Of a stretch of 64,000 nucleotides of DNA, positions 27,094 to 46,232 are shown in pieces. This DNA comes from Tubulanus polymorphus (Eukaryota; Animalia; Nemertea). The stretch lies in NCBI RefSeq assembly GCF_964204645.1, contig NC_134030.1:9513222-9577221 (forward strand), in the 5' to 3' direction. How positions within the stretch are numbered: the first letter of the stretch is position 1; every line of letters starts with the position of its first letter. Made by a program: the position numbers and the translations under genes. The notes under the pieces are model-generated. The model was not told the origin of the DNA, made no database searches, and worked only from the letters and a program-made list of their open reading frames with translations.

Positions 27094-27751
27094 CCTAATT
27101 CAAGTAGAAATTATTATTATTTTAACATTTGGAAAATTTATCAACCTCAACCTCTCAACCTTTGATATAGAACAACTAAACCCCTATTACTCTATCTAAT
27201 AACAAGTCTCATAATTTACAAGCCTCAACACGTTGAGTATTGCGTATTACATGTTGATTCTAGAACAACCCATCTAGAAAACTACATTAGCCAATCACAG
27301 TTGAGTATTACGCTAGCCAATCACAGTTGAGTATTTCCAGCCAATCACAGTTGAATATTCCCTATTACTCTATCCAATCACAGTTGAGTATTTCCAGCCA
27401 ATCACAGTTGAATATTCCCTATTACTCTATCCAATCACAGTTTAGTATTTCCAGCCAATCACAGTTGAGTATTTTACTATTACACTAGCCAATCACAAGC
27501 CTCATAATTTACAAGTCTCAACACGCAGCTGGGTTTCCCCCACTGTTGAGTAGTATAAATAGGCGGGACTCACACGTGGCGGGACGCGTTGAGAGGTAAG
27601 TGTTATGTTCAATTTTAATAAAAAATTTGATATTAAAATGGAAGCAAATAAGTACTACTGTCCAACATGTAATATCAATATAGATAAATCCCAAAAAGCA
27701 AGACACAATAAAACTAAAACACATTTAGAGAATGAATTGAAACTAGAATAT
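27088..27751 (+). repeat. Left TIR (664 bp, truncated at the hairpin apex)
   Basis: Reverse complement of 44356-45019 with few mismatches. Includes the first 49 codons of pPolB. Confidence 0.95.
27289..27601 (+). promoter_or_regulatory. TIR promoter: 8 CCAAT boxes, TATAAATA (27554-27561), two GGCGGGA motifs, CACGTG, ACGCGT, AG|GTAAGT donor (27596); mirrored at ~44506-44818 on the minus strand
   Basis: Eight (g/t)ccaatcaca repeats followed by TATA, ~50 nt upstream of the pPolB ATG. Confidence 0.65.
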
Positions 27752-30700
27752 GAAGATGATATATTAGAAACTAAATTAGATGAATTAAAGAATGAAAAAG
27801 AAACATATAAATGTGATACATGTAATCAATCATTCAGTGATAAAAGATATTATAAAGAACATTTAAAATCTATAAGTCATATTAGAAATAAGAATAATGA
27901 TATTATAGGTGAAGATTATTTTGATAATGATAACGATAAGAAACAGAAGACAATTAAAAGAATAAAAAATAAATTAAACAATAAAAGACCATACATGGAA
28001 GATGTAAGAAATTATATTAATTCATTAGATAATAAAAAAGATATAGAAATAACCGAAGCATTTAAAAGTGATATTGGTCCAGCAGCTATCGAGTTTAAAT
28101 TTCATAAAGGAAAAACATTAGAAGAAAATAAAAAACATTTAGAAAATATGAAAGAAATAATAAAAATAATTACAGATGTTGAATATCCTAAAATTAGTAT
28201 ATCAGTTAAAGTAAAGTTTATAAAATCTGAAGATAAACCAATATATAACATAAATTCTCATTCACAACATATTATATCTAAACAACATATAGATGATAAA
28301 TTAAATAAATGTTATAATGAAATAAAAACTAAAATAGAAGAGAAATATTTTGAAGGATCTGGTTTAATATTTGATGAGATAATATTTATAACTTTACATG
28401 TTTATAACACAAAATATAATAAGTTAACTAAATCAAAACCAATTGATGAAAATAATTTATCATATTATAAAGATGATAGTATAAATGGAACAAGTTATAT
28501 TAAATTACCATTTACAACAAAAGCAGTAATAAATATACAAAATTTTGATAAAAAATGTTTTATATGGGCTATAATAAGTTGTTTACATCCAACAGAAGAT
28601 ATTACACATAGTTTTAGATTAACTCATTATAAACCATTTGAAAATAATTATAAGATAGATAAGTATCCTGTTATAATTAAAGACATCCCAAAGATAGAAA
28701 GAGATAATAATATAAAGATAAATGTATTTGATTTAATCAAATTACCAAATACAAAAGGTAACAACATAAAACATTATACATTGGAACCTTTATATCTATC
28801 AAAAGATTATGATTCAAAGGATGTTATAGATATACTATATTATAGGAATCATTATATGTGGATTAAAAGAATTGATTTATTTTTTAAATCAGAAAATGAT
28901 TTTGATAATAAAATATATCTATGTAGAAAATGTTTACATAAATTCAGAACTGAAAGTGCATTATTAAATCATAAACAATTATGTGAAAATCATGATTATT
29001 GTAAATTAGTTTTACCAAATGAAAAGGATAAAATATTAGAATTCAAAAAACATGATTACAAAAATAAAGTACCATTTGTAATATATGGAGATTTTGAATC
29101 ATTAAATAAAGAATTAACAGATAAAGATAGAAAAGATATATATTATAAAAGAAAGAAATTAAATTCTAATGAAAGTGATTATTCAGAAGAACCACCAAAA
29201 ACAAATACTATTAAAAAGATTCATCAATCAGCTGCAGCTTTCGGGTTATATATTAAATCTGATTATCCAGAACTAACTGAAAGTGAATATTATAATTACA
29301 GAAATGAAAATGTTATCAATCATTTTTGTGACTTATTAATTGAATATGAAATAAGATTTAGTAAATTATTGAATACAAATAAAGAAATAATTATGACAGA
29401 AGAAGATAAAGAAGAATTTGAGTTTTCAGATAAATGTTATTATTGTGAAAAGATATTTAATTATAAAGATAAAAAAGTAAGAGACCATGATCATTTGAAT
29501 GGAAAGTTTAGAGGCGCTGCACATGAGAATTGTAACTTACAAGCTAAGAAAATTAACTTTGTACCGGTTATATTTCATAATCTATCAGGATATGATGCAC
29601 ATTTATTCATCAAACAGTTATGCTATAAAATAGAAGAAATCAATAATGAAATAGAAATATTAAATTCAAATAGATCAAAAGATAAAATACCAACTTATAA
29701 ATTTAGAATGTTAGCTAAAACATCTGAGAATTATATATCATTCCAATTTGGTTGTCTAAGATTTATAGATTCATATAGATTTTTAAATAGTTCATTAGAT
29801 AACTTATCAAAATCATTAGTTGATGATGAATTAAAGATATTAAAGCAACATTACCCAAATAATGATGATTTTCAATTAATGAGATATAAAGGAGCAATTC
29901 CATATTCTTTCTATAAAAATCATAATGATTTTAACATAACTGAATTATTGAAAGAACAATTCTATGATTAATTAAAAAATGAATATGTTAAAGATGAAGT
30001 CTATAATAGAACATTGAATATTTGGAATCATTTCAAAATAGAAAATCATGGACAATTAGTAGATTTATATTTAAAATCAGATGTATTATTATTAACCGAT
30101 ATATTCGAAAGGTTTAGAGATGTAAACCTAAAATATTTCAATATTGATCCTTGTCATTGTTATTCATCACCAGGATTAACATGGGATTGTGGATTAAAAT
30201 TTACAGATATAAAAATGGATTTGTTAACAAATATAGATCAATTATTATTATTTGAAAAATCTATAAGAGGAGGTGTTTCAGGTGTATTGGGTGATAGATA
30301 TTTCAATGTAAATGATAATCCTGGATATAAATTATTATACATAGATGCAAATAATCTTTATGGTTGGGCAATGATGGAACCACAACCTTATGGGATGTTT
30401 GAAATAACTGAAGTTTTACAAATTGATAAATTTGATTGGAAGAAAAGAATCCTAGATATTGCAGATGATTCAGATACTGGTTACTTCTTTGTTGTAGATT
30501 TAGAATACCCTGAAAATATTAAATTCAAATCTAGAAATCTAGCATATTGTCCCGAACATAAAACTGCTAAACATGAAGAATTATCAAATTATCAAAAAAG
30601 AATTAAACCCGATAATCATATTCATACTGAAAAGTTAATGGTAACTCAAGAAGATAAATATAATTACGTTGTGCATTATAGAATGTTGAAGTTTTATTTG

Positions 30701-31669
30701 AGACAAGGAATGATATTAAAAAAAGTACATAGATATATTTCATTCAGTCAATCTAAATGGTTAGAAAAATATATAGATTTTAATACTACACAGAGAACTA
30801 AATCTAAAACTGATTTTGAAAAAGATTACTTTAAACTAATGAACAATGCGTTCTATGGTAAGACTTGTGAAAATATTAGAAATAGAAATGATATTGAGTT
30901 AGTCAGTAATGGTAAAAGGATAAGGCATTTACAATCATATCCTAAGTTTATAGGTAACAGAATATTTGATGAAAATTTAGCAGCAGTTAAGATGAGAAGA
31001 ACATCAATGAAATTTAATAAACCGATTTATGTTGGAGCTGCAGTTTTAGAAATTTCAAAATTATTAATGTATCAATTTTACTATAACGTATTACGACCTC
31101 ATTTTGGAGAAAAGCATATAGAAATCTTATATTTTGATACTGACAGTTACATATTAAAGATAAAAACTGATAACATAACTGATGATTTAAAAACATTAAA
31201 ACACCATTTTGATTTCAGTAACTATCCAAAAAATCATGAATTGTTTACCAATGATAATAAAAAAGTTCCTGGGAAGTTTAAGGATGAATTAGGTGGTGAA
31301 TAAATGATAGAGTTCATAGGTATTAGATCTAAAATGTATAGTTATAAAACTAAAACTCATGAAGCTAAAAAGTTAAAAGGAATTACCAAAAGCGTTGTTG
31401 AAAAGAATATTCATTTTAAAGATTACATCAATTGTATATTTAATGAAGAAGTTAGAAAACATAAAATGAAATGTTTAAGATCTGAAGATCATGAAATGTA
31501 TATTGAAGAGATAGAGAAGATAAGTCTAAACCCATTTGATGATAAAAGATATATTTTAGATGATGGAATTCACACAGTCGCCTATGGTTGCAATTTAGAT
31601 GAATATATAAAATTCAAAAGAGAAGAAACAAAAGAAAATGAGATTATGAAAAGGATTCTAGCGTGTTAA
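27605..31669 (+). pseudogene. polB: Protein-primed family B DNA polymerase (pPolB), one reading frame interrupted by TAA at 29969-29971 and 31301-31303
   Basis: ORFs 27605, 30014 and 31304 are in the same frame. Exonuclease motifs YGDFES, FHNLSGYD, YLKSDV; polymerase motifs YIDANNLYG, KLMNNAFYGK, YFDTDS, KMYSY; endonuclease VII-like CYYC..RDHDH..AHENCN; N-terminal C2H2 fingers. Confidence 0.95.
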
Positions 31670-31697
31670 TCAATTTCAATAAAAATGTGTATAATAA

Positions 31698-32039
31698 ATG
31701 GAGAGCAAACAAGTACACAGTGAATTCTTAGATAGAATTAAAGATACTTCAAGCGTCAAATCTGTAGATTATAAATTTAAAAAACTAACTGAGTTAACAA
31801 TTCACAAGAAGTATTTAATTACTAACATTGAAACAATTACTAATAAATATGGAGATAAATTAGTAATTCATTTAGAATATGAAGGATTAAAAGGAAATAA
31901 ATATAAATTCAGAACTTATTTACCAGATAGATTTCATAGATTATCAAGTGAAGATCTAGAAGAATTATGTTCTGGAGATTTCTATTTCGTATACAAAGGT
32001 AAGAATGAAAAAGGGCACCATGAAATAGATTTCGAATAA
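31698..32039 (+). CDS. Small viral protein, possibly OB-fold/ssDNA-binding
   Basis: 113 aa ORF with TAAATG start and beta-rich pattern (YLITNIETITNKYGDKLVIHL, TYLPDRF). The function is inference only. Confidence 0.6.
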   Translation: MESKQVHSEFLDRIKDTSSVKSVDYKFKKLTELTIHKKYLITNIETITNKYGDKLVIHLEYEGLKGNKYKFRTYLPDRFHRLSSEDLEELCSGDFYFVYKGKNEKGHHEIDFE

Positions 32040-32056
32040 GAAAATATGTAAAATAA

Positions 32057-32818
32057 ATGGTAGAATTAAAAGAATACAGAATATTTGTAGATTCTAGAAA
32101 ACTTACAAATTATAAATCACATAATTTATTAGTACAATTAGATAGAGAATTTAAGAATTGTGTAGATTTAAAATTAGTTAATATAAGTTTATGTAATTCT
32201 TTTTATAATATATCGAATAAAACTATTGAACATAGAGCTTTTTTAATTTTTAATAAAAATAAAAATGAATGGGTCTATATATATTTAAAACCGGGGTTAT
32301 ATAATTTAGATACATTAGCACAAGAAATTAATAGAAAAGCCTGGCACAAATTAGGTAGTAGTTCTGGGTTTAGTATTAGATTTTTAAAAAGTGAGAGTTC
32401 TGATAGAATAAAGATAAGGTTGTCTAATAGTGAAAAACATAAATTTATGGTAAAAAAACCTATAGCTAAACTGTTAGGAATTCTTCCAGATAGATCTTTT
32501 ACAAATATTGACGCTACTACACCAAACTTAATACCTTACACACATTTTTATATTTATTGCAATTTAATTGATCCTACAAAAACATTCGAAGCAACTAAAG
32601 ATATAACTTGTAATTCTGGTTTACTAAACATTTTACCATTGAAGAATGTTAAAGAATTTGGAACGCAAATAAATTATAATTTAACAGAATGTGATTTCAA
32701 ACCATGCATTCCTCGTTTTAATAATTTTAGATTAGAAATTAGAAATCATAATGGATACTTAATTGATTTAAATAATTTCCCTGTAATTTATGAATTAGTT
32801 ATAAGATGTAGAGAGTAA
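32057..32818 (+). CDS. Minor capsid protein (penton, single jelly roll)
   Basis: 253 aa; NSFYNI, LKPGLYN, FYIYCNLID, LLNILPL and IRNHNGYLIDLNNFPV match the Polinton penton pattern. Confidence 0.8.
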   Translation: MVELKEYRIFVDSRKLTNYKSHNLLVQLDREFKNCVDLKLVNISLCNSFYNISNKTIEHRAFLIFNKNKNEWVYIYLKPGLYNLDTLAQEINRKAWHKLGSSSGFSIRFLKSESSDRIKIRLSNSEKHKFMVKKPIAKLLGILPDRSFTNIDATTPNLIPYTHFYIYCNLIDPTKTFEATKDITCNSGLLNILPLKNVKEFGTQINYNLTECDFKPCIPRFNNFRLEIRNHNGYLIDLNNFPVIYELVIRCRE

Positions 32819-32835
32819 TTTTTTTCACTATATAA

Positions 32836-33177
32836 ATGAATATAACTGTTGGCCCGAGTATATGTTTTGGGTTTGATTTTAAACATGGTAAAGAAATGAG
32901 AATTAAACTAAATGATGTAATTACTGATATAAAAAGTAAATTATTTAACAATGCGTCAATGATTGATAAAGAAAAGTATAATATAGAAAAAGTAATTGAT
33001 TTAATTAAATCACCTTTAGAATATTATGAATTAAATGAAGATGGAATTATTGATGATATTAAAAACATATTATCCAAAATATATGATAATCATAAAACTA
33101 GTAATGAAATAAATGTTGAAATAATCATAAATAAGTTAACTAAATATTTTGAAGATAGTAAATTTTTTGATAAATAA
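32836..33177 (+). CDS. Hypothetical viral protein
   Basis: 113 aa ORF with T-run + TAAATG start, tightly packed in the gene array. Confidence 0.7.
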   Translation: MNITVGPSICFGFDFKHGKEMRIKLNDVITDIKSKLFNNASMIDKEKYNIEKVIDLIKSPLEYYELNEDGIIDDIKNILSKIYDNHKTSNEINVEIIINKLTKYFEDSKFFDK

Positions 33178-33399
33178 ATGAGTGATAATAAGTGGATAAT
33201 AACTGGATTATATAATGGCGCCTTACTATCAGTTGGAACGGTTGGTTATTCAATGGTATTAAAAAAAGTATTCAAAATGGGAAGTGTTAATGTTGATAGA
33301 TTTGATATCAATGATATTTTAAAGTTAACATTAGCGGTTACTTTATCTAATTTAACTATTGATTATTTGGAAAAACAAAAATATATTCCTCCCATATAA
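33178..33399 (+). CDS. Small hydrophobic (two-helix) viral protein
   Basis: 73 aa, two hydrophobic segments, TAAATG start abutting the previous stop. Confidence 0.7.
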   Translation: MSDNKWIITGLYNGALLSVGTVGYSMVLKKVFKMGSVNVDRFDINDILKLTLAVTLSNLTIDYLEKQKYIPPI

Positions 33400-33423
33400 A
33401 TGCATAATTTTTTTGCTAAATAA

Positions 33424-33846
33424 ATGGCTTCTGCAATTATAACTATTATAGGATCGGCAATTGTTAACGCTTTAGCATTTACTGGTGGTGGTTATTTATT
33501 TAAACATATTGATAAAAATAGTTCATTAGGAGAACAAAGAAGACATAACTTAGCGTTAGAGAAATATAATAAAGCTGCAGAAGAATATAGAGAAAAGAGA
33601 CAAAACTATATGGATTATATTAACAAGGAATTATATGATCAGAAGATTTCACACAGAGATTTTCAATCAGTTGATGATGCAATGAGTTTATATAACGCAG
33701 TAACAAATAAAGAAAAATTACATCTATACAAACCTAAATTATCAGATTATTATACCCCAAGTAAAGAACAACAGAAATATGAAATAATATGGATTTTAGG
33801 TGGAACAGTTATTGTTATATTTGTTGCTTATAAGTTTACTAATTAG
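33424..33846 (+). CDS. Viral membrane-associated protein
   Basis: 140 aa; hydrophobic N-terminus (IVNALAFTGGGYLF), coiled coil (RRHNLALEK), C-terminal TM helix. Confidence 0.75.
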   Translation: MASAIITIIGSAIVNALAFTGGGYLFKHIDKNSSLGEQRRHNLALEKYNKAAEEYREKRQNYMDYINKELYDQKISHRDFQSVDDAMSLYNAVTNKEKLHLYKPKLSDYYTPSKEQQKYEIIWILGGTVIVIFVAYKFTN

Positions 33847-33865
33847 TAATTTTTTTTCTAAATGA

Positions 33866-34300
33866 ATGGAAGATAAAGTTGATAGTATTGATATTATTCC
33901 TCATGATATAAATAAAACTAAATTAAAAACATATTTAGAAAAACAAATATTAGAATTTGAAAGTGACTTAAAGATAAAAAAGAAAAAATATTTAAAAAGT
34001 AAAATTATATATTATTTGATTATAAGTGGTTCGGTTACAATTAGTTCTGTAATAACATTTTTAGCAATATTCAGCCCATTAACACCTTTAGCTATATCAA
34101 TTGGTGTATTAGGATTAAGTTCAAGTGTTTTAACTGGTATAAGTTCAAAATTAAATATAAAAAGTAATAAAGAAAAAATCAAAACTAATATAAAAGAAAT
34201 TAATAAATTAAAGAACACACTAGATTATATAATAAGCTTAAATGGTCATATAACAGTTGAAGAACAAGATAAATTATTAAAAGAATTAATAAATTATTAA
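33866..34300 (+). CDS. Viral coiled-coil protein with two TM helices
   Basis: 144 aa; central hydrophobic hairpin flanked by Lys-rich coiled coils. Confidence 0.7.
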   Translation: MEDKVDSIDIIPHDINKTKLKTYLEKQILEFESDLKIKKKKYLKSKIIYYLIISGSVTISSVITFLAIFSPLTPLAISIGVLGLSSSVLTGISSKLNIKSNKEKIKTNIKEINKLKNTLDYIISLNGHITVEEQDKLLKELINY

Positions 34301-34316
34301 TTTTTTAGTTATATAA

Positions 34317-35618
34317 ATGGGGTTTCCAAAAGCTTTCCAATATAATAAATCAATTAAATATAATATTCCGGCAATAGATTTTAAGAAAAATATTACATAT
34401 AAAAATATAGTTTTAAATTCATTAACTAATTTAGAAATTTATGTTAATGAATCACAGTTTTTTATTTCTAAAATGGAAAATATATTTAATACATATGAAG
34501 TTACTTTTACTCGAGATGAATATCATATATATAAAGTAAAATCTAATATGAAATATTGGCAGAATCAATTAAATTTTGCTGTTTATTGTGCAACAACAGG
34601 ATGTGGAATTAGTTGGAATGATCATTTAAATAACTTAGATAAAAATTTGAAGTATTCTGATTTAAAATTAATTCACACAATATTTAGATTTCACACATAT
34701 TTTCAAATCAGAATAATATTAAATGAATTAGAATGTCCTTTACCCGGGTCTAAATATTTTAAAGAATTGGATAATAATATTAATATATCCAAGTTTTATA
34801 AAATATGTAATGAATTTAATATAAATATTAATTCCGATTTTAGAGCGCATGGTAAATTGCAAGGTGTTGGTGAAGAGTATGAAATAAAAAGAATTGATTA
34901 TATGCATAGAATTGGAGCTTATCATAATTATAAAATTGATAATAATAATGGTTGGGTTAATTTCATTTAAGAAAATGGTGAAGGTTTTACAAAATCAGGT
35001 ATACAAAGAATAAATCAATCTATTAGAATTTATTTGATATGTATTTTAGGCGCTCAAGTTGAAACAAGATCCCCAATAATTGGAAATGATAACACTTCAT
35101 TCGATGCGCAGAAACAGTTTAAAGTTTTATTTGAAGATTCCATACATAATGATAAAAATAGATCGATTCCAGAAAACATTATAAGATATCAAAATTATTT
35201 AGATAAATCTCATGTAAGACTTAATTATTGTATAGGCCCTAATCTATTAATTATTTCTAATGATTTAGTATTAAAAATGGGAAACATAATTGGTTATAAT
35301 AATTTAATTAAAACTGCAACAATAAATAATTCATTTGGATTAAATGATATAAATAAAAAGATTATTACTGCTCCAAAATTAATGGAAGGTGAAAAAAATA
35401 AAAAACATATTCAATCAACAGAAACTAAAACTAAGAATATTAAATTAAATAATGATTCCAAAATAAAAGATTACAATACTACAGAAAATAATAGAACTGA
35501 TAAAATTCAACATGATATAATTAAACTAAATGATGATAATAAATCCCATGAAAATACTAAATTAGCTATAACTTGTATAGGAATTGTAATCGGAGGAATA
35601 TTATATTTTAAATTTTAA
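34317..35618 (+). pseudogene. Conserved Polinton protein with C-terminal TM anchor, interrupted by an in-frame TAA at 34968-34970
   Basis: ORFs 34317 and 35034 are in the same frame and the gap reads open (ENGEGFTKSGIQRINQSIR). Motifs WQNQLNFAVYCATTGCG and FDAQKQF. Confidence 0.8.
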
Positions 35619-35635
35619 TTTTTTTTATTATGTAA

Positions 35636-37351
35636 ATGGATGTAGAAGGTGGAGAAGATTATGAAATGGGAGAAATGGGAAATAATAATGAAGGATATAT
35701 TGATAATGATTATAATGATGCAGAAACTAATATTGATAATGATGATGAATCAGCATATAATACTAATTTAGGTGAAGATGATGATTATGATGATGATGAT
35801 GATGATGATGATCCCGAATTACGTGAAAAATTAAATAAATATTTAAAAGCTCCTGAAATTGGTAGAATTTCAACTAGAAGAGAAAGAAAAGAATTTATGG
35901 AACTATTAGTAAAACAACAAGAAAAAAATCCTGATAAACCTATGGAATTATTTAAAATGAAATCTAGAGTAACAGATACAATTGTTAACGAATTATTACC
36001 AACAGTTGTAATAGATGAAATTGATTCAGAAGGTGTTGTAGAACAAATTTCTAAAGATGACCCATATTTCACAAATAATTTAGAATTTAAAAATGATTCA
36101 TGGTATTATAATGTTAATTTAAATAACAAAATTGTATCAATTCAATTATCTAAAATGGGTCAAGAAAATATTTTTGAACCTGAAATGCGAGCAACATCTA
36201 CAATTGAAAATTCAAAAGGTGGTAGAGAATTTCTCAGAATTATATGGAATGCACTCGATAGAATAAATGAAGAAGAACCAATTCCGAATATTGATATAAA
36301 CAAATATTCACCATTTAAAAATCCAAATCCTACTGATTTTGATCCAGAAATGGAAGAGAATAGAAATCGATTAGATAGATTAAGATCTTCAACACCTGAA
36401 ACATCGAGAAGAGACACTCAACCAATTGATAATTATTCAAGTCAATTACAATTAGAAAAACAAATTGATAGATTAAGAGATTCAGAAGAACTGATGAATA
36501 GTATATCAGATACATCTGGTTCTGAAACTGGAATAAATCGACTGCAATATTTACTAGAAAAAGGATTTCTTAATTTAACTGATGAAGAATTAGAAGCATT
36601 TCCTGAACAAATACGTAGAGAAATTAAAGGTATACAAGTATCAGCTGATGAAATTGCTAATATTAAGATGAGATTTTCTAAAATAACCATGTTAGAAAAA
36701 GAATTAACTAATGCAGATGAAGAATTAAAACAATTAGAATTAAATAGAGATCATCAAGTAGTTTATGAAGCTGATTTTGAAAGCAGAAAGTTAGCTTTAG
36801 TAAAAGAAATAGATGATTTAGAATATAACATAAAATTACAAAAAGAAGAAAGAGATATATTATTAAAATCATATGATCTTAATCATATTAAAAAATTAAA
36901 AGTTATTTTTAAAGATTTGTTGATAAAACCAGATTCTGAAATATCATTAAAAGACAGAATAAAGTTATTATCTAAATTAGAAGGAATAACAGTTCTTTCA
37001 ATTCTAACATCTGTAACTATGTTATTTACAACAATTGGTTTAGCTATATCAAATGCTTTGAAATCTACTCCTACTCCAACTCCAAATAAACCAGATAAAC
37101 CCCCAAGCAATAATTCTATACAAGATAAAGTTAAAGATGGTTTAAAGAAATTAGCAAAATATTTATGGGAACTATCTAAAAAATCTGCTGCAGCTTTACC
37201 AGGAGTTATTGCTTCAATTGTTGGTTTTATATTGAAATCTGCAGGAAACATTATTAACTTTGCTGCCGAACATATTATTTTATTTTTAATTACAGTTGTA
37301 AGTGCTATTATTTTTGGTTTAGTAAATATGATATCAAAAAATATCAAGTAA
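35636..37351 (+). CDS. Large viral protein: acidic N-terminus, coiled coil, C-terminal hydrophobic/amphipathic helices (putative membrane-active)
   Basis: 571 aa; poly-Asp, heptad region, EGITVLSILTSV...AALPGVIASIVGFIL...ILFLITVVSAIIFGLV. Confidence 0.8.
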   Translation: MDVEGGEDYEMGEMGNNNEGYIDNDYNDAETNIDNDDESAYNTNLGEDDDYDDDDDDDDPELREKLNKYLKAPEIGRISTRRERKEFMELLVKQQEKNPDKPMELFKMKSRVTDTIVNELLPTVVIDEIDSEGVVEQISKDDPYFTNNLEFKNDSWYYNVNLNNKIVSIQLSKMGQENIFEPEMRATSTIENSKGGREFLRIIWNALDRINEEEPIPNIDINKYSPFKNPNPTDFDPEMEENRNRLDRLRSSTPETSRRDTQPIDNYSSQLQLEKQIDRLRDSEELMNSISDTSGSETGINRLQYLLEKGFLNLTDEELEAFPEQIRREIKGIQVSADEIANIKMRFSKITMLEKELTNADEELKQLELNRDHQVVYEADFESRKLALVKEIDDLEYNIKLQKEERDILLKSYDLNHIKKLKVIFKDLLIKPDSEISLKDRIKLLSKLEGITVLSILTSVTMLFTTIGLAISNALKSTPTPTPNKPDKPPSNNSIQDKVKDGLKKLAKYLWELSKKSAAALPGVIASIVGFILKSAGNIINFAAEHIILFLITVVSAIIFGLVNMISKNIK

Positions 37352-37395
37352 ACCATGATATCAAAAAATAAATAATTAATTTTTTTGTTAAATAA

Positions 37396-38643
37396 ATGAG
37401 TGGGAGTTATATCAATCCTTCTAAGAATCATAGAATATCTAATGCTATTAAAGCAGAAAGATCACATCATATAATTACTCATAACCCTTCAAATATTAAT
37501 CCCGATGAAACTTTATACGTTAGAATCCCTCGATTAACACAAAATACTTTTTATGTTCCAAATAGTATTTATTTATCAGCCGATATAAAAGTAACCGGTA
37601 ATAATAATAATTATGTTGTCGATAATGTTGGAAGATATTTGATTAAAAAGTTAACTATAAAGATTGGTCCAGAAACAGTTTTCTCATTAGATGATTATAA
37701 TTTATTTTCACATTATAAAGATTTATGGTTAACTAAAGAAAATAGAAATAATATGATATTTCAAGGAATTCAATCAGAAAACCAAAATAAATTAAGATCA
37801 GAAGCTAATAGCGCAATATTAACAAATGATGTAGATAAATTGATAAAAAGTATATATGGAAGCAAGTATAAAATTCCATTAGACTTTGAATTAATAAATA
37901 ATAATGCACCTTTATATAAATACGCAATTCAAGAAGATATTATATTTGAGATAACATTTGCTCCTGTAAATGAAATTGTATTATCTAGCGTTAATAAAGA
38001 TATGAGTTATAAATTATCGAATATATGTTTAGAATATGATACAGTAACTGATGAAAATATTTCAAGTATAATTCAAACTCAATACAATCAAGGATTTTCA
38101 TTATTATATGATTATATTGATAAATTTAAAACTGTAACTATTAATGCAAATGATGAAATAATAAATGAGAATATTAACTTTCCTAGAAGATCTATTAAAG
38201 GTATATTAATATTTTTTACCATTGGAACGTATACTAATGGCGCAATAAATGTTGACAATTATTATAATCCTGAAATAACAAAAGTAGAAATAACTATCGA
38301 AGGTATAGCGAATAAAATATTTTGTCAAGGAATGAGAATGATTGATCAATGGGTAGAAATTAAAAAACATTTTATGAATGAAAAAATAAAATCATTTGAA
38401 AATTGTAATATTAATCAAATTGACTATTATACCGGTAATAAATATGCATTATGGTTAGATTTTAGAACAACTGAAGATAATTCATTACATGGTTCTGGGA
38501 AAAAACTACAGAACACTAAAGATGGAATACAATTATTCATGACAAAGAAAAAGGGAATCAAAAATTTTAAAATGCACATTTATATTATATCTGACGCGCA
38601 ATTAAATATTGTAAATTCACAATTAGATAGTGTTATGTATTAA
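37396..38643 (+). CDS. Major capsid protein (double jelly roll)
   Basis: 415 aa; THNPSNINPDETLYVRIPRL, YKIPLDF, YKLSNICLEYD, PRRSIKGILIFF, YNPEITKVEITIEG and YALWLDFRT..LHGSG match Polinton MCPs. Confidence 0.85.
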   Translation: MSGSYINPSKNHRISNAIKAERSHHIITHNPSNINPDETLYVRIPRLTQNTFYVPNSIYLSADIKVTGNNNNYVVDNVGRYLIKKLTIKIGPETVFSLDDYNLFSHYKDLWLTKENRNNMIFQGIQSENQNKLRSEANSAILTNDVDKLIKSIYGSKYKIPLDFELINNNAPLYKYAIQEDIIFEITFAPVNEIVLSSVNKDMSYKLSNICLEYDTVTDENISSIIQTQYNQGFSLLYDYIDKFKTVTINANDEIINENINFPRRSIKGILIFFTIGTYTNGAINVDNYYNPEITKVEITIEGIANKIFCQGMRMIDQWVEIKKHFMNEKIKSFENCNINQIDYYTGNKYALWLDFRTTEDNSLHGSGKKLQNTKDGIQLFMTKKKGIKNFKMHIYIISDAQLNIVNSQLDSVMY

Positions 38644-38675
38644 AATTTTAACTTTAATAAAAATATATATAATAA

Positions 38676-39860
38676 ATGGAAGGTGGAATATATGAAATAC
38701 AATCTCCAAGTGAAATGATATCAGATATATATTATATATTACCTTATGATGAATACAGTAAGTATTTTGGAGATTACTTTAATCAATTCAAATATAGAAT
38801 AAGTAAAATAAAAGATAATATTGAATATAAAATAGAAGATAATATTGAAACTAAAATAGAAGATAAGAATGATATTGAATATAAAATAGAAGATAATATT
38901 GAAACTAAAATAGAAGATAAGAATGATATTGAATATAAAATAGAAGATGTAACAGCATCTACATCTTATAATATACCCTCTACATATGATATTGAATCAA
39001 AAAAGACAAATGAAAAATATTGTGACGTATGTAAACAGTATAAAAGTTATAAGAATTGGGCAACTCATCTTAATTCACTCAAGCATAAGAAAAATAAGAA
39101 TAAGATTTTAAATGAATTGAATAATGATAGTGAAATTGATAATGATAATGTTAAAGAAGATAAATATCGTGAAGAATGTGATAAATATATAAGTCGTAGT
39201 AATTTTTCAAAGCATAAATTAACACAGATACATTTGGATAATATAGAAAGAAATATATGTGAAAAGTGTAATGTTGTTGTATTACCTAAAGATAGAATTA
39301 AACATGATAATTCTTTTGAACATACAATAAAAGCTGCTGATTTAAATAACCTTTATAGAGTACCAAATGTATTTTTTGATATCGAAAATAATGATCATAG
39401 GAAATTATATAGATCAATTTTTATCGATTATGTAAGAAATAATCCAAAACAAGTATTATTAGATATTAAAATTGGTCGGACGCGTATAAAAATTGATCTA
39501 AATAATTATTGGGGTATACATTATTTCATAAAATTTAAAAATATAGATTTTTTAACAGAATTGAAAAAAGTTGCTGCTAATGATAATATAAGTGATAACT
39601 TTGATGAAATAATTCAATACTATAGTTATGAAGATTTTTCACAGGATGTTATAAATAAAATAAGAAATGAAACAAAAAATAAATATAAAAATATAAGTGA
39701 AGACAAATTAAACCAATATATTTATTTAACTTATGAATTCTTTGCTAAGGGTTTGAATGTGGTTGATGGTTATCATTTTAAACTATTAGGTGAAAGAAGA
39801 TCGCAAGAATTAATAGATGCATGGCGCAAATTGTTTTTAGAATTAGAATCAGAAAAGTAA
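38676..39860 (+). CDS. Zinc-finger protein with an internal 18-aa tandem repeat
   Basis: 394 aa; C2H2 fingers (YCDVC..HLNSLKH; YREEC..HKLTQIH, first Cys lost; ICEKC..HDNSFEH); (DIEYKIEDNIETKIEDKN)n. Confidence 0.75.
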   Translation: MEGGIYEIQSPSEMISDIYYILPYDEYSKYFGDYFNQFKYRISKIKDNIEYKIEDNIETKIEDKNDIEYKIEDNIETKIEDKNDIEYKIEDVTASTSYNIPSTYDIESKKTNEKYCDVCKQYKSYKNWATHLNSLKHKKNKNKILNELNNDSEIDNDNVKEDKYREECDKYISRSNFSKHKLTQIHLDNIERNICEKCNVVVLPKDRIKHDNSFEHTIKAADLNNLYRVPNVFFDIENNDHRKLYRSIFIDYVRNNPKQVLLDIKIGRTRIKIDLNNYWGIHYFIKFKNIDFLTELKKVAANDNISDNFDEIIQYYSYEDFSQDVINKIRNETKNKYKNISEDKLNQYIYLTYEFFAKGLNVVDGYHFKLLGERRSQELIDAWRKLFLELESEK

Positions 39861-39887
39861 TTTAAAATATGAATATAATACCCTTTG

Positions 39888-40450
39888 TGTCTTTATTGTC
39901 TTTAGTAGTTTAGTACTTTTAGTACATAAAGAATAAATCTTTATTTTATTAGTAGTGAATAAAATTATTTTTAAAACTACTAAACTACTAAAGATAATAA
40001 AGACATAAATATATATATAACACTGTTTCAATAATTATATTTATTCATCTGATGGATTTTATATATTACTGTTTCAATAATTAAATCTATTTATCACACA
40101 TATTTATTATATATATCATAGATTTATCATTTATAAAAATTATTTATATATTTATTTTTCTAAGTACTAATTAAATAAAGATTTATTCTTTATGTACTAA
40201 AAGTACTAAACCTACTAAAGATAATAAAGACATAACAAACACATATAGATGTAATAAATATCATAGATTTATTTATCTCACAGATTTATTATATATATTT
40301 GATTCAGTAATAATAAATCTATATTTCTTTGTTATGTCTTTATTATCTTTAGTAGTTTAGTAGTTCTATTTTATTTTATTCACTACTAATAAAATAAAGA
40401 TTTATTCTTTATGTACTAAAAGTACTAAGGTACTAAAGATAATAAAGACA
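39888..40450. terminator. Nested inverted repeats between convergent gene blocks (putative terminator or origin)
   Basis: 39888-40017 is the reverse complement of ~40332-40450. Each arm is itself bounded by tgtctttatt(a/g)tctttagta / tactaaagataataaagaca. Partial third copy at ~40165-40235. Confidence 0.55.
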
Positions 40451-40497
40451 TTAGGGGAGGTATATAATACATATCTAATACATAGGTATACAAATAG

Positions 40498-41112
40498 TTA
40501 TTTTATAAATTTATATTCATATGGAAATTGTAATCTCAGTAATAATTTTGAACCTTTATTATTCTTTAATTTATTCATATATTCATCATGTAATTCAGGA
40601 GGTATAATTTGATTTTCCTCCAATGATTGTTGCATAGATTTTCTATCTTTGTTGTAGAATAAAACTAGAAATCTTATATTCTCTCTAAAATCTTTCACAA
40701 TTGAATTATATTTCTGATTTAAAACCCAAGTTGTTATCCCAAAATGTCTACCAGAGAAAGCTAAATAACACAACTCACTTTCTCTAATTTTAGAATCATG
40801 TAAATTTGCGCAATCATCAATAATAAATAATGTATTAGATCCTTTATAAATATCTAATGCAATTTTTATACAATTATCTAAATTATCTTTCACTGTTTTA
40901 GAATTTAATATAATAAACTTTTTATCTTTAAAAACTATATCTCTATTATACGTTTCATTCATTTCATAAGTTGGGCAGAATAATATTATGTTATCAAAAT
41001 GATTTTTATAAATAGTTTCTAACAAATCTAATATGAAATGTGTTTTACCACAATTTGTAACTCCAGTAACTAACATATTATGCGGTTCAAATATAAACAA
41101 ATCTTTATTCAT
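40498..41112 (-). CDS. A32/FtsK-HerA family DNA packaging ATPase
   Basis: Walker A GVTNCGKT, Walker B LFIIDD, GRHFGI..W.LNQ, FRENI. Confidence 0.93.
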   Translation of the reverse strand: MNKDLFIFEPHNMLVTGVTNCGKTHFILDLLETIYKNHFDNIILFCPTYEMNETYNRDIVFKDKKFIILNSKTVKDNLDNCIKIALDIYKGSNTLFIIDDCANLHDSKIRESELCYLAFSGRHFGITTWVLNQKYNSIVKDFRENIRFLVLFYNKDRKSMQQSLEENQIIPPELHDEYMNKLKNNKGSKLLLRLQFPYEYKFIK

Positions 41113-42190
41113 TTATTCTTTTAATTTCACTAGATAAAATCCATTCATTAAATTTATCATCATATCCTTTATATTTCACCAAAGAATACTTTTTTCCTTT
41201 AAGAGTTTTTGTTTTTAATACCTTTTCTATTTTGTATTCTATTTCATCTGGATTTGGTACTAATGATAATTCTTGTTCATAAAAATAACCTAATATTTCT
41301 TCATCTTTTAAATCAAACAATTTATAAACAAATGGTTTAGTTAATATTATCTTTTTAATCTTGAATATTTCTTCAGTAAAATTAGGGGTATAACCTTTAT
41401 AAAATGTTTTTCTATATTTAGAAATTCTTACGTGTTGTCCAATTTTAAATTTAGGTTCTCCAAAATCATGTGTAACAAATGCTCCATATAAATTATTCCA
41501 AACTATTTCTGAATTTTCTTCTTTTCTAGCTTGTATAGGTTTCATATTTATAGAACTATGTTTAGAATTATTATAACCTTTCACTAAATCATCTAACACA
41601 TCGATATATTTATCTGTTTCATTAGCAGTAAAATATTTCCACATTCTAGTTTTCAATGTTTTATTAAATCTTTCTATAACAGATGCTTTTTTATCTGAAT
41701 GTGTTGAAAAATATTCTACATCGTTATCAGATAATAGTTTTTTAAAATGTTTGTTATAAAATTCCTTACCTTCATCAAATTGTATCTTATCTGGAATAGC
41801 TTCTTTAAATATAGATTTAAAAGCATTTGTTACTTCTATACCAGTTTTATTTTTAATCGGGATACTCCATGCGTATCTACTGAATATATCTATAACATTT
41901 AGTATCCAAAAATATCCTTTGTTGTATTCCTCTAAGTTCTTCATATCAATTAAATCAGCTTGCCATTGTTGGTCAATATATGAAACCATTACTTTTCTTG
42001 TTAAATATTTTTTATCCATTTTCTTGTGGATTTGATATGTTGGTTGATTTTGTAACCATGATTTTAATTCACTATATTTTATATTGCTATTATCAGATTT
42101 AATTTTATTCCATAATTCTGAAACGTTAGAATATGATACTTCACTTTCTGGGTTATAATATAAATCTCTTAAATATTGTTCTTTTTTCAT
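41105..42190 (-). CDS. int: Retroviral-like (rve) DDE integrase with C-terminal chromodomain
   Basis: WQADLID, IDIFSRYAW, QFDEGKEF, IERFNKTLK, YNNSKHSSI; chromodomain YKIEKVL..LVKYKGY..FNEWI. Confidence 0.96.
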   Translation of the reverse strand: MKKEQYLRDLYYNPESEVSYSNVSELWNKIKSDNSNIKYSELKSWLQNQPTYQIHKKMDKKYLTRKVMVSYIDQQWQADLIDMKNLEEYNKGYFWILNVIDIFSRYAWSIPIKNKTGIEVTNAFKSIFKEAIPDKIQFDEGKEFYNKHFKKLLSDNDVEYFSTHSDKKASVIERFNKTLKTRMWKYFTANETDKYIDVLDDLVKGYNNSKHSSINMKPIQARKEENSEIVWNNLYGAFVTHDFGEPKFKIGQHVRISKYRKTFYKGYTPNFTEEIFKIKKIILTKPFVYKLFDLKDEEILGYFYEQELSLVPNPDEIEYKIEKVLKTKTLKGKKYSLVKYKGYDDKFNEWILSSEIKRINE

Positions 42191-42196
42191 CTTATT

Positions 42197-42625
42197 TTAA
42201 TCCATTAATAATATTTTAGATTTATTTTCATTTGATTTATGATTTGACTTATTTTCTGGTATAATAGGTTTATTGTCTGTACACGGATAACTAAGTTTCC
42301 GATCATCATTGGAATCATCTTTATCATCAGAATTGAATTTTGATTTATATATTACACCGGAGAATATAATAATTGTGATTAACCCAATTGTAATATATAA
42401 GTAATTATGAGATTCAGCTGTGCTGAATCTATTAGATGGATTATTATTTGAATCAATACCACCGTGTGGGTGCCGTACGGCATCATCAGATAATTTCTGT
42501 GATTCATTTATGTCAGTTAATTTCTTTTTCTTAGCTTTTTTTAATTCTGAAGATCTTTTACCTAATTCTCTTGCCCATTTAATTTGTTTATCGGATCTAA
42601 CCTTTTTCTTAACTCCATCACTCAT
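42197..42625 (-). CDS. Small basic protein with one TM helix
   Basis: 142 aa; Lys-rich N-terminus, YLYITIGLITIIIFSGVIY. Confidence 0.7.
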   Translation of the reverse strand: MSDGVKKKVRSDKQIKWARELGKRSSELKKAKKKKLTDINESQKLSDDAVRHPHGGIDSNNNPSNRFSTAESHNYLYITIGLITIIIFSGVIYKSKFNSDDKDDSNDDRKLSYPCTDNKPIIPENKSNHKSNENKSKILLMD

Positions 42626-43220
42626 TTATTTTAGTTAATTTTTGTTCCGATTCATTTTCTGTTTCGACGTTTGGTTGTAGTACATCTGTTTCGTTCTTAC
42701 CTGATTTATATTCCATAGGCTTGATGTTCGAAAATGTTATGACGCCAGTAGAAATTAATGTCATAACCGATCCTAATTGAAATGAAGCATATCCAACCCA
42801 TTTTTGTAATTCAGCCATAACTAAGTAGTCATTTTTCAAATCACTATATAATTTATTTTCATCATCAATTGGTATTAACTGGTTACATAACTTAGAATAA
42901 CATTTGACAATACCATTCGAAATAGAATCATTTATTTTAGATAATCTTGCCTCTTCATAAATCTTAAAATATTTTATTACTTTATCGGGTTTCATAGAGT
43001 CTAGTTCTTGAAAAGTTATTATTTTTCCTAAGAAGTCCTTAGATTTCCCGCCAGCAATTAATAATTCAAGATGATGCTTACAATATAAATAGTATTCATA
43101 ATCAATATTGTTATTAACTTGAATAGAATTAGAAACAACTGTATCTTTATTATCACTAATACCTAAATCATCTAATGTTTTTTCAATATCAATACTATTC
43201 TTATTAGATTTCTTTGACAT
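42618..43220 (-). CDS. Hypothetical viral protein
   Basis: 200 aa ORF with long T-run + TAAATG start and a hydrophobic segment near the C-terminus. Confidence 0.7.
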   Translation of the reverse strand: MSKKSNKNSIDIEKTLDDLGISDNKDTVVSNSIQVNNNIDYEYYLYCKHHLELLIAGGKSKDFLGKIITFQELDSMKPDKVIKYFKIYEEARLSKINDSISNGIVKCYSKLCNQLIPIDDENKLYSDLKNDYLVMAELQKWVGYASFQLGSVMTLISTGVITFSNIKPMEYKSGKNETDVLQPNVETENESEQKLTKINE

Positions 43221-43469
43221 TTATATTAGAGAAAAAAAGCAAAAAAAATATTATAAGTATTCTTCAAATGATACTAGATAGTTAAAGTTAAAGAACTCTA
43301 GTATTGACTACTGATACTAGCTATTTGAATTTAAAGAATTTCTATTCGGATCTATTCAAAATATAAAGTATTCTCTTTTTGAAAAGAAAATATAAAAAAT
43401 ATAATAGAATTCACTAGCTAGTTGAAGTTATTGTTTTTTTATTATATTTTATTTGAGATATATTATTCT

Positions 43470-44135
43470 TTAACCACTCATTAAAGACTCAACGTATTGT
43501 TCATTATTTGGATTATTATTCCATAATTCAATAAATTTCTTTGCTTTTGTTAACTGTTCTAAATATAACTGTAAATCTAGTTTATTAGATTTGGTTTGAT
43601 TTTCTTTCTTTTCTAAAGGCCTTAAATTTTTCCAACCCCAAATAAGTTTTTTATTGTATTCATCGTTCATGTTAAATTTAGATATTGGTAACACGTGATC
43701 AATATGGTAATAATCCCCATAATTATCTATATTCATTTTATCATCGAATTGAAATATAATCCATGATTTGAGAAATTCATCTGAACAACCCAATAAATTA
43801 GATAGTGTTTCTGAATGTGTTTCTTTGTTGAATAATTGTGTTAATCTAGTCCTTAAGCATTGTTTCAATCTAAAATTAAGATCTGTTTGATATCTTTCTC
43901 TCATATATTCTGTCATATAATCATTATAAGATTCTCTATTATCTTCTCGATATTGTTTGGTATATAGTTTAATACAAGTTTTACAATAATATTGAAAACC
44001 ATCTTTGCTAATCTTACGCTTACTAAATTCTGTTAATGATTTATCTAATTCACACTTAGAACACTTCTTGTAGTATATGTTTATAACACCAGTGTTATTT
44101 GTAATATTGATAGTTTGTGGTTGTTCTGGTTCCAT
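43470..44135 (-). CDS. HNH endonuclease with N-terminal Cys4 zinc finger
   Basis: KKCSKC...YYCKTC; YHIDHVLP...WKNLRPL..KENQTKSNK. Confidence 0.85.
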   Translation of the reverse strand: MEPEQPQTINITNNTGVINIYYKKCSKCELDKSLTEFSKRKISKDGFQYYCKTCIKLYTKQYREDNRESYNDYMTEYMRERYQTDLNFRLKQCLRTRLTQLFNKETHSETLSNLLGCSDEFLKSWIIFQFDDKMNIDNYGDYYHIDHVLPISKFNMNDEYNKKLIWGWKNLRPLEKKENQTKSNKLDLQLYLEQLTKAKKFIELWNNNPNNEQYVESLMSG

Positions 44136-44244
44136 TTATTATACGTATTTTTGCATGTTTGTAATAATGATTCATAGTAACAGCTGTAACAGCTGTGAAT
44201 TTATAGATTTATTCCATAGCTCTGTACATTGAATGTATATAGGT

Positions 44245-44502
44245 TCAAATAGAATCATTTTCTAGTATAAACATCGGATCCTCAACGTATTGTTCATTAT
44301 TTGGATCATTATTCCATAATTCAATAAATTTCTTTGCTTTTGTTAACTGTTCTGAATATTCTAGTTTCAATTCATTCTCTAAATGTGTTTTAGTTTTATT
44401 GTGTCTTGCTTTTTGGGATTTATCTATATCGATATTACATGTTGGACAGTAGTATTTATTTGCTTCCATTTTAATACTATATTTTTTATTAAAATTGAAC
44501 AT
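44245..44502 (-). CDS. Chimeric ORF: pPolB N-terminal zinc finger (from the TIR) fused to a duplicate of the HNH C-terminal tail
   Basis: Residues 1-49 match the pPolB N-terminus; EQLTKAKKFIELWNNDPNNEQYVE matches the end of 43470-44135. Confidence 0.55.
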   Translation of the reverse strand: MFNFNKKYSIKMEANKYYCPTCNIDIDKSQKARHNKTKTHLENELKLEYSEQLTKAKKFIELWNNDPNNEQYVEDPMFILENDSI

Positions 44503-45122
44503 AACACTTACCTCTCAACGCGTCCCGCCACGTGTGAGTCCCGCCTATTTATACTACTCAACAGTGGGGGAAACCCAGCTGCGTGTTGAGACTTGTAAAT
44601 TATGAGGCTTGTGATTGGCTAGTGTAATAGTAAAATACTCAACTGTGATTGGCTGGAAATACTAAACTGTGATTGGATAGAGTAATAGGGAATATTCAAC
44701 TGTGATTGGCTGGAAATACTCAACTGTGATTGGATAGAGTAATAGGGAATATTCAACTGTGATTGGCTGGAAATACTCAACTGTGATTGGCTAGCGTAAT
44801 ACTCAACTGTGATTGGCTAATGTAGTTTTCTAGATGGGTTGTTCTAGAATCAACATGTAATACGCAATACTCAACGTGTTGAGGCTTGTAAATTATGAGA
44901 CTTGTGATTAGATAGAGTAATAGGGGTTTAGTTGTTCTATATCAAAGGTTGAGAGGTTGAGGTTGATAAATTTTCCAAATGTTAAAATAATAATAATTTC
45001 TACTTGAATTAGGAGTGTACGCGACTAATTCAAGTAGAAATTATTGTTATTTTAACATTTGGAAAATTTCTCGACCTCGACCTTTCGACCTTTGGTATAG
45101 AACAACTAAACCCCTATTACTC
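44356..45122 (-). repeat. Right TIR including the terminal 208-nt imperfect palindrome (44915-45122)
   Basis: 44356-45019 matches the left TIR. 45019-45122 folds back on 44915-45018 with 10 mismatches and no indels. Confidence 0.9.
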
Positions 45123-45785
45123 ACATTGAAGTCCCTCTGGAGTCTCGGCGAGTATAACCGTATCATCAGCATATAACAGTAATAAGAGTTCGAATGTACC
45201 TAAGTAGATTTCATCATAATCAGTGCTTTTAACATGTTCTTCCATATCATTGATAAAAAGATTAAAAAGAAGAGGGGATAAACACTCTCCCTGTCTTACT
45301 CCAATGTTACATACAAAATACTCAGTGAAATTGTTATACTGCTTTACGCACGATTTCGTCGTTCTATACATGGAGTGTATTATTCTAAGGATTTTACCAG
45401 ATAAACCATTACTATGGAGTTGGTTCATCAAAATTGACTGATCAACCAAGTCAAAAGCTTTAAAAAAATCTAGGAAAGCAGCATAGACTTTGTTACCCTT
45501 ACTAATAAAATGATTTATAACTGAATTTAGGACAAATATTTGATATATGGTGCTGTATGAAGGACTAAAACCTGCTTGCGATTCTGTGAGAACTGAAAAA
45601 GCCTCACACCAGGAAGTTAATCTTGTATTTAATATGGTTGAGAACAACTTTCCAAAAACAGACAGTATAGTAATGCCTCTAAAGTTATTCGCATTAGAAG
45701 TGGGCCCCTTCTTATGAACTGGTACTATGTATCCCATACTCCAACTTTCAGGATATATGCCACTCTCAAAAATCAAATTAAATAG
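45123..45785 (-). pseudogene. Non-LTR retrotransposon (LINE) reverse transcriptase fragment, truncated by the Polinton end
   Basis: IVPVHKKG, NFRGITIL, QAGF, FLDFFKAFD, GVRQGECLSPLLF, LLYADD. The ORF stop is supplied by TIR sequence. Confidence 0.92.
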
Positions 45786-46232
45786 AATAGTTTAGAGGTT
45801 TTTGAAATGATTAAATAAGCTGTTTGAATCAGGTAGTTTACATTCAGGCGTAGAACCTTTAAATTTTGTCCACAGATCTCTATGATTATTGTTGTCATTA
45901 AATCATTGGTACCGCCGACCAGTTAAATAAGTCGACGGTTCTCGAATCGTCGGCATCGTCGACCAATAAAGACGGTTGCCTAGGTCAAACTACAAAATAA
46001 CACCTTTTTCAAAAAATTAGTGAAATTACTTGACGCACTATAATATGACCGTATATTGGACTTGACCCAGTACCACACGATTCCTGCAGATTTGATTCCA
46101 TTTGATTCTTTGTGAATTGTGTTGATTCATACATATGATCTTATCTAGACGATTAAGACGGACAGCTAAAATGTGATCTATATTGATTGTTTTTAATTCG
46201 GTTTATGAATGCATCGGTTGGTCATATTTTAG

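Follow-up and report, generated by a model that had tools for sequence, protein, structure and literature searches.

A TAAATG start signal conserved in a clade of animal Polintons and its possible reading by a poxvirus-like helper virus

The window analysed in this study is the 64,000-nucleotide (nt) stretch of contig NC_134030.1 (assembly GCF_964204645.1) from position 9,513,222 to 9,577,221, and all coordinates below are those of the window. It contains a 17.9-kb Polinton at 27088-45019, and nearly all internal genes of this element begin at the hexamer TAAATG, a start signal that is conserved across a clade of relatives and may be read by the RNA polymerase of a helper virus. The element carries a family B DNA polymerase, an rve integrase, terminal inverted repeats (TIRs), a double-jelly-roll capsid protein and a packaging ATPase, which place it among the Polinton/Maverick elements (Polintoviricetes). 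The GC content of its core is about 21-26%, and its two TIR arms fit the terminal inverted repeats of a Polinton. The features are listed below with the open reading frames (ORFs), their lengths in amino acids (aa) and the form of their starts. RNA polymerase II is abbreviated Pol II.

27088..27756, plus strand: left TIR, 669 nt, 99% identical to the right arm; exact terminus approximate
27291..27601, plus: Pol-II-like cassette inside the TIR, with 8 CCAAT, TATAAATA (27554), CACGTG and a donor-like GTAAGT (27596)
27608..27640, plus: A-rich motif, T at -12 and TAAAATG at the second in-frame ATG of the polymerase (27638); mirrored in the right TIR at 44469
27605..31669, plus: family B DNA polymerase with zinc fingers and a weak endonuclease VII match (Pfam); motifs DANNLY, KLMNNAFYGK and YFDTDS; two in-frame stops
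31698..32039, plus: 113-aa ORF; TAAATG, A-rich class; low-confidence model
32057..32818, plus: putative minor capsid (penton) protein, from a weak DUF5901 match (E=0.007); TAAATG, A-rich class
32836..33177, plus: 113-aa ORF; T7 + 7 nt + TAAATG
33178..33399, plus: 73-aa hydrophobic protein; the sole start whose TAA is the stop of the upstream gene
33424..33846, plus: 140-aa protein with hydrophobic ends; T7 + 6 nt + TAAATG
33866..34300, plus: 144-aa membrane protein; weak SLATT-like match (E=0.004), under the cut-off; variant start TAAATGAATG
34317..35618, plus: conserved Polinton ORF with one in-frame stop; T6 + 7 nt + TAAATG
35636..37351, plus: 571-aa acidic protein, C-terminal part hydrophobic; T8 + 6 nt + TAAATG
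37396..38643, plus: double-jelly-roll major capsid protein (MCP); T7 + 6 nt + TAAATG; AlphaFold predicted local distance difference test (pLDDT) 83
38676..39860, plus: 394-aa protein with zinc-finger-like motifs; TAAATG, A-rich class; low read depth
39861..40497, no strand: AT-rich inverted-repeat region of 637 nt where two gene blocks converge; long nested repeats; low read depth
40498..41112, minus: A32-like packaging ATPase (Pox_A32, E=2e-12); TAAATG
41105..42190, minus: rve integrase with chromodomain (PF00665, above cut-off); start TAAGATG
42197..42625, minus: 142-aa protein with a single hydrophobic segment; TAAATG, A-rich class
42618..43220, minus: 200-aa conserved protein; T7 + 8 nt + TAAATG
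43470..44135, minus: HNH-like protein, weak Pfam match; TAAATG, A-rich class
44351..45019, minus: right TIR, holding a short copy of the polymerase N-terminus

Polymerase motifs A, B and C are all in frame despite the two internal stops, and the protein is 27-37% identical to the unbroken polymerase of a distant Polinton, L229, described below. No match was found to Pfam polymerase families or to PDB sequences, and we infer that the enzyme is of the protein-primed type. The MCP model was matched by Foldseek to the MCPs of Paramecium bursaria chlorella virus 1, Singapore grouper iridovirus and mavirus, with E values from 1e-17 to 1e-11, while the model of the ORF at 31698 has a pLDDT of 56 and no assignable fold. 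The ORF at 34317 has as its counterpart in L003, one of 24 related metagenome loci (L001-L024) recovered by capsid alignment, a single uninterrupted ORF of 442 aa. Several ORFs could be assigned no function by Pfam. SLATT proteins, which the 144-aa protein weakly resembles, may act as defence effectors in such viruses (discussed in 10.64898/2026.10.13.758929). The low read depth over 38676..39860 indicates that the 394-aa gene differs among copies of the element, and the inverted-repeat region at 39861-40497 is a possible transcript end or read-through barrier. Pfam searches of the ORFs detected no RNA polymerase gene, no transcription-factor family and no protease, so that the adenain which characterizes adintoviruses (Starrett et al.) was not among the matches. 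The adenain-like N-terminus from L229, used as a query, likewise returned nothing in the element or in L001-L024 at E<1.

TAAATG stands at 13 of the 15 internal ORF starts. Among the 391 ATGs of the local coding strand that are not starts, 26 have it (Fisher p=7e-13). The two exceptions are TAAATGAATG at 33866 and TAAGATG at the integrase (42190), and the integrase start of relative L001 is TAAATG. When 100,000 draws were made from the same upstream 15-, 20- or 30-mer composition, the mean was 1.2-1.3 and the maximum 7-8, and none reached 13; the original prediction had named such an enrichment as a check on its claim. A second feature is a T at -12 from the ATG, present at 14 of the 15 starts and at all 13 TAAATG starts (p=2e-4 against neighbouring positions). 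Upstream of this T lies a T-run in seven starts, including that of the MCP, an A-run in five and a mixed sequence in three. T-runs of at least 6 occur upstream of 8/15 starts and 6/391 other ATGs. Counts of TTTTTNT differ by strand (22 compared with 66), probably as a result of lysine-rich coding, and were given no weight. The A-rich subclass (A-rich run, T, N8, TAA) is found at 31698, 32057, 38676, 42625 and 44135, and the second in-frame ATG of the polymerase at 27638 has the A-run form with TAAAATG. The base at -3 is T in 14 of the 15 starts, and a T at this position is a poor Kozak base.

The original prediction had given all 15 ATG coordinates correctly, with 13 directly after TAA, and its spacers of 6-8 nt in seven T-run starts were also reproduced. 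It had further described the gaps between genes as 15-45 nt, which is right for nine of 15 (16-44 nt) and overstated for the others (0, 6, -8, -8, 109 and 249 nt). Three features had been missed: the T at -12, the A-rich subclass and the TAAAATG of the polymerase at 27638.

The signal was then counted in the 15 closest of the related loci (L001-L014 and L017; 51-77% capsid identity), L020-L024 being decayed fragments that were excluded. Of 68 closed ORFs, 58 start at TAAATG, and the total falls to 66 if two truncated-looking ORFs are removed; among internal ATGs the count is 40 of 1268 (p=1e-65, with loci that are not independent). T at -12 was present in 56 of 62 unique upstream sequences. 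The motif is retained at 40-44% GC (L007 and L008, 3/4 starts each) and through changes of gene order. There are six head-to-head gene pairs, about four of them independent, with ATGs only 19-30 nt apart and TAAATG on both strands. One locus, L014, was placed with the clade though neither of its two starts is an exact TAAATG. In a capsid tree, the 14 labelled motif rows form one clade (Shimodaira-Hasegawa-like approximate likelihood ratio 97) with three unlabelled rows inside; this was a quick tree, built without bootstrap and with L002, L017 and L018 left out. Thus, the feature is real and is conserved across a capsid clade. As a separate observation, L003 carries at 10343-10981 (minus strand) a deoxynucleoside kinase (E=2e-31) that also starts at TAAATG.

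The signal is not a general property of Polintons or of viral DNA. Four more distant sister loci with the same gene set and 29-32% GC (L015, L016, L018 and L019) have TAAATG at none of 12 starts, and other Polintons sampled have it at 3 of 45. By eye, the upstream sequences of these sister loci are rich in TATAG or ATATA, which is possibly the motif of another helper. Unrelated viral loci gave 50/723 starts, or 10/106 at GC of 30% or less, and a second viral control set gave 69/745; in each set 74 of at least 120 loci were scored. A second lineage with the TAAATG signal is L229 (IMGVR_UViG_3300020002_000020, 9,034 nt), a distant Polinton from the second control set with an integrase 46% identical to that of the window element. 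Its starts are TAAATG in 7/7 cases, or 6/6 excluding the one that seeded the search, with T at -12 in 3/6. Its integrase is fused to a domain that we take to be adenain-like and that has no Pfam match. A control scan also yielded an iridovirus-like record, a group taken up below. Scans of viral contigs with the MCP, ATPase and integrase returned no relatives, and scans of species genomes and phages with the MCP returned none.

Several simple accounts of the motif were considered. First, chance in AT-rich sequence has in its favour the low GC of the element core. However, this is already refuted by the enrichment in the window and, with the non-independence noted, in the relatives, by the 10/106 of AT-rich controls, by the 0/12 of the sister loci at 29-32% GC and by the retention of the motif at 44% GC. 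Secondly, the motif may act after transcription, as a poly(A) signal, a T-run terminator, stop-start coupling or an enhancer of translation on polycistronic RNA. AATAAA does occur in 9/13 starts, several T-runs come straight after a stop codon, and there is one exact TAA-ATG junction. However, just one of the 13 TAAs is the stop of an upstream gene, so that stop-start coupling, raised beforehand as a possible sole cause, does not account for the others. AATAAA occurs in only 24/54 starts of the relatives, and the motif is kept at the first genes of their units in head-to-head pairs and after rearrangement. The T at -3 disfavours scanning initiation and speaks against a Kozak context. Its retention where GC reaches 40-44%, and on the two strands of the head-to-head pairs, weighs strongly against AT bias as well as against poly(A) signals and stop-start coupling. 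A post-transcriptional role is very improbable. Lastly, a splice acceptor does not fit, as AG lies within 15 nt in just 3 of 15 starts. A transcription start signal at the ATG would be the simple reading that remains.

The original prediction had named this signal a poxvirus-type late promoter. Its core held up: there is a conserved start signal, fixed in position, with the architecture of post-replicative promoters of poxviruses. The match to poxviruses is weakened in two respects: the spacing departs from that of vaccinia, and the hexamer is not confined to poxviruses. According to PMC11980589, TAAAT(G) overlaps the start codon in vaccinia late promoters, and one T among the T residues further upstream is conserved; intermediate promoters are A-rich upstream. 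The consensus strings in Table 1 of PMC11423596 are T-N9-TAAATG for late and TAAAAA-N14-TAAA for intermediate promoters, and in salmon gill poxvirus TAAATG is marked at many genes (PMC4542343). The Polinton clade has T-N8-TAAATG, with T at -12 in 51/54 starts and also at -13 in 42/54. The vaccinia and mpox late promoters (PMC11980589, PMC11423596) and the Polinton signal thus share TAAAT over the ATG, here at 13/15 starts in the window and 58/66 in the relatives, a T at fixed distance among other Ts and a second, A-rich class. Unlike theirs, the Polinton signal sits on an element with no detected RNA polymerase gene and is known here from sequence alone.

The explanation we favour is that the Polinton is a helper-dependent satellite, read by the polymerase of a poxvirus-like virus, to which we give a probability of about 0.45. 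The broader proposition, that the promoters are read by a large-virus helper of any kind, is probable. T-N8-TAAATG would be a promoter of about 30 nt for the late-stage (post-replicative) RNA polymerase of the co-infecting virus. In vaccinia, transcription starts in the AAA and a poly(A) leader is added (PMC7163114). By analogy, transcripts of the Polinton would begin in the AAA and gain a 5' poly(A) leader by slippage, which would hide the unfavourable T at -3. The genes would be silent in the absence of the helper, and capsid, packaging, integrase and polymerase genes would be expressed during co-infection only. Mavirus offers a precedent, being silent until infection by Cafeteria roenbergensis virus (CroV); nuclear entry of a late factor was proposed there by the authors (10.1101/068312). 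The element DNA might leave the nucleus before it is transcribed, or factors of the helper might enter the nucleus in the same manner. In copies that have it, the Pol-II-like TIR cassette could give host-driven expression of the polymerase.

Several points weigh against the poxvirus-like helper. First, the fixed T lies 8 bases before TAAATG and not at the vaccinia late spacing of 9, and in the A-rich class the distance from the A-run to TAA is mostly 9-10 nt and not the 14 of vaccinia intermediate promoters. This likeness was judged on published consensus strings and not on poxvirus DNA. Secondly, no helper sequence was found, and no poxvirus genome was recognised among the highest-ranked matches of two viral-contig motif scans (at least 120 loci each) and of a scan for the MSV199 family. 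Nor was any gene shared with poxviruses found; the L003 deoxynucleoside kinase gave four relatives and the HNH protein cluster matches only. Third, poxvirus transcription is cytoplasmic while the provirus is nuclear, so the route of access is a gap in the mechanism. Fourth, the window copy is damaged, with in-frame stops that interrupt the polymerase twice and the ORF at 34317 once, and carries in its TIR the Pol-II-like cassette with CCAAT, TATA and donor-like motifs. In addition, the split of the motif group was drawn after the motif had been seen, and several loci are near-duplicates. Lastly, TAAATG occurs in other large viruses. It is found at 5/14 starts of one large-virus locus (L069), and at 79/232 starts of 34 iridovirus-like loci (L276-L295 and L297-L310; family inferred from MSV199, DUF5757, DUF5770, XPG and dNMP kinase genes), where TAAA lies no more than 4 nt from the ATG in 81 further starts. 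With TAAATG at a third of the gene starts in these iridovirus-like genomes, a poxvirus cannot be identified from the hexamer by itself.

The helper may accordingly be sought among other large DNA viruses, as a relative of invertebrate iridoviruses, a relative of asfarviruses or egoviruses, or an unsampled lineage. The iridovirus-like counts above and the departure of the Polinton spacing from that of vaccinia support this. Also, iridovirids infect insects and crustaceans, and their nuclear phase would ease access to a provirus (PMC8400408; PMC5294985, section 9). However, the iridovirus-like start motif differs from that of the Polinton in spite of the shared hexamer and AT-rich upstream sequence. 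AATAAA is nearly obligatory in the iridovirus-like loci, where it accompanies 76 of 79 TAAATG starts compared with 24 of 54 in the Polinton clade (p=6e-12). The same 76 of 79 have the form AATAAATG, whereas in the Polinton clade TATAAATG (21/54) and AATAAATG (24/54) are about equal. T at -12 is present in 32/79 iridovirus-like and 51/54 Polinton-clade starts (p=3e-11). The T fraction does not exceed 0.43 at any distance of 4-16 nt before TAAA in the iridovirus-like loci, while in the Polinton clade it peaks at 0.96 at 9 nt. The Polinton starts thus do not follow the pattern of AATAAA at variable distance from the ATG without a fixed upstream T. The late initiator of African swine fever virus is TATA (PMC7163114), which argues against that relative, and the late motif of CroV is TCTA (PMC5294985). 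A helper from among these viruses is therefore rather unlikely. As an observation in its own right, the iridovirus-like genomes have a strong (T)AATAAA close before the ATG, with AATAAA within the last 12 nt in 147/232 starts, and section 9 of PMC5294985 does not list this start motif.

The Polinton motif is therefore, on these comparisons, apparently nearer to the poxvirus than to the iridovirus pattern and identical to neither. The spacing differences from vaccinia, of one base in the late and five in the A-rich class, suggest that the candidate helper is a poxvirus relative that is divergent or unsampled, and not an orthopoxvirus.

Host Pol II, alone or with an element-encoded factor, could instead read compact promoters in the nucleus, making the element autonomous. 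The provirus is nuclear, several ORFs have no assigned function, TATAAA occurs inside some starts, and the CCAAT, TATA and donor-like motifs in the TIR of the window copy suit such a role. The weight of these TIR motifs depends on the rest of the family, which was assessed from genomic reads of one run (12% read). Read depth is about 310-980 over most of the element compared with 3.7-7 in the far flank, which would correspond to between some tens and more than a hundred related copies. Within the cassette the depth is 67-76, compared with a mean of 648 in the adjacent bin, and 94 reads contain a joint from 44498 to 44914 that skips about 415 nt spanning the cassette in the right TIR (44499-44913). 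The cassette appears to be missing from most copies and kept in a minority, an estimate that internal repeats could bias. A further 733 loose read ends lie at 44498, and similarity among the copies seems to stop about 30 nt upstream of the polymerase TAAAATG, which counts in favour of the helper-read promoter. Apart from this apparent lack of the cassette in most copies, a TATA box at the ATG would, by Pol II spacing (PMC5294985), place the transcription start inside the ORF. Where ATGs lie head to head at 19-30 nt, there is no space for untranslated sequence, the starts are not splice acceptors, and no transcription-factor family was matched in Pfam. For these reasons, transcription by Pol II is unlikely.

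The favoured reading of a poxvirus-like helper can be compared with known systems. Mavirus and the endogenous virophages of Cafeteria are likewise small integrating double-stranded DNA viruses with TIRs and Polinton-like genes, whose promoters match the late motif of the large virus (10.1101/068312). They differ in their protist host, virophage capsid, CroV TCTA motif and experimentally established helper dependence; the present element has an animal host and a Polinton capsid. Barth et al. 2024 (PMC11296320) suggested that Polinton-like viruses from entomopoxvirus occlusion bodies are the first hyperparasites of poxviruses, and these are similar in being proposed poxvirus parasites in invertebrates. 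However, they are about 12 kb and all have an adenovirus-type protease (PMC11296320), for which no counterpart was found in the window element. No analysis of promoters or motifs turned up in a term search of the main text of PMC11296320. Adintoviruses (Starrett et al. 2021, PMC8502044) share with the element PolB, an rve integrase, an FtsK/A32 ATPase, a hexon-like MCP and an animal host, but the element has no detected adenain, and the other Polintons sampled lack the motif (3/45; 0/12). Two Spodoptera elements co-purified from baculovirus-infected cultures (PMC8502044), a source in which a term search returned no mention of promoters or helpers. Giant-virus-induced Polinton-like viruses have been shown in an alga (10.1101/2025.10.09.676808).

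Helper-matched promoters in protist virophages and poxvirus-linked Polinton-like viruses were thus already known, and the TAAATG signal in an animal Polinton clade appears to be new. Term searches of PMC8363768, PMC11161782, 10.1101/2024.03.23.586382 and 10.64898/2026.10.13.758929, in part with 'promoter' itself as a term, returned no passage on Polinton promoters. Abstract-level searches, whose coverage mostly excluded subscription journals, returned no description of TAAATG promoters in Polintons. Animal Polintons might be autonomous viruses, transposons or satellites, and the sole report of their mobilisation listed in PMC11296320 concerns two in baculovirus-infected insect cells. A helper-type promoter across a whole clade makes the satellite question testable. 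If the reading is right, the hosts of this clade should harbour a large DNA virus whose late promoters have the form T-N8-TAAATG, and the start motif may allow thousands of animal Polintons to be sorted by likely helper from their sequence. A wider and speculative extension, which we regard as doubtful, is that a widespread clade of animal Polintons and at least one distant lineage are satellites of undiscovered invertebrate poxvirus relatives. Their promoters would then record the helper and change as helpers change, and the tens of copies in this genome would be an inducible anti-poxvirus reservoir in the germline.

The remaining observations concern the flanking host DNA. Polintons are bordered by a short target-site duplication; here, matches between the ends mostly stem from an adjoining partial TIR copy, and one 5-nt match elsewhere was unconvincing. 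Part of the TIR end recurs, inverted, as a 98-nt copy at 45025-45122, 12 nt beyond the mirror arm, and is followed by a non-LTR (long terminal repeat) reverse transcriptase fragment at 45117-45791. Host genes occupy 46187-57314 and 59056-60990, and comprise a tandem pair of multi-exon genes with F5/8-type and fibronectin-III-like exons (labelled by eye) and an FBXL7-like gene. The latter is intron-split, with named FBXL7 matches at 53-63%, and therefore indicates an animal host. CpG is not depleted in the window, which suggests an invertebrate. In window positions 1-24000, repeats and TAAATG sites recur at an offset of 11,900 nt, suggesting a recent tandem duplication of host DNA.

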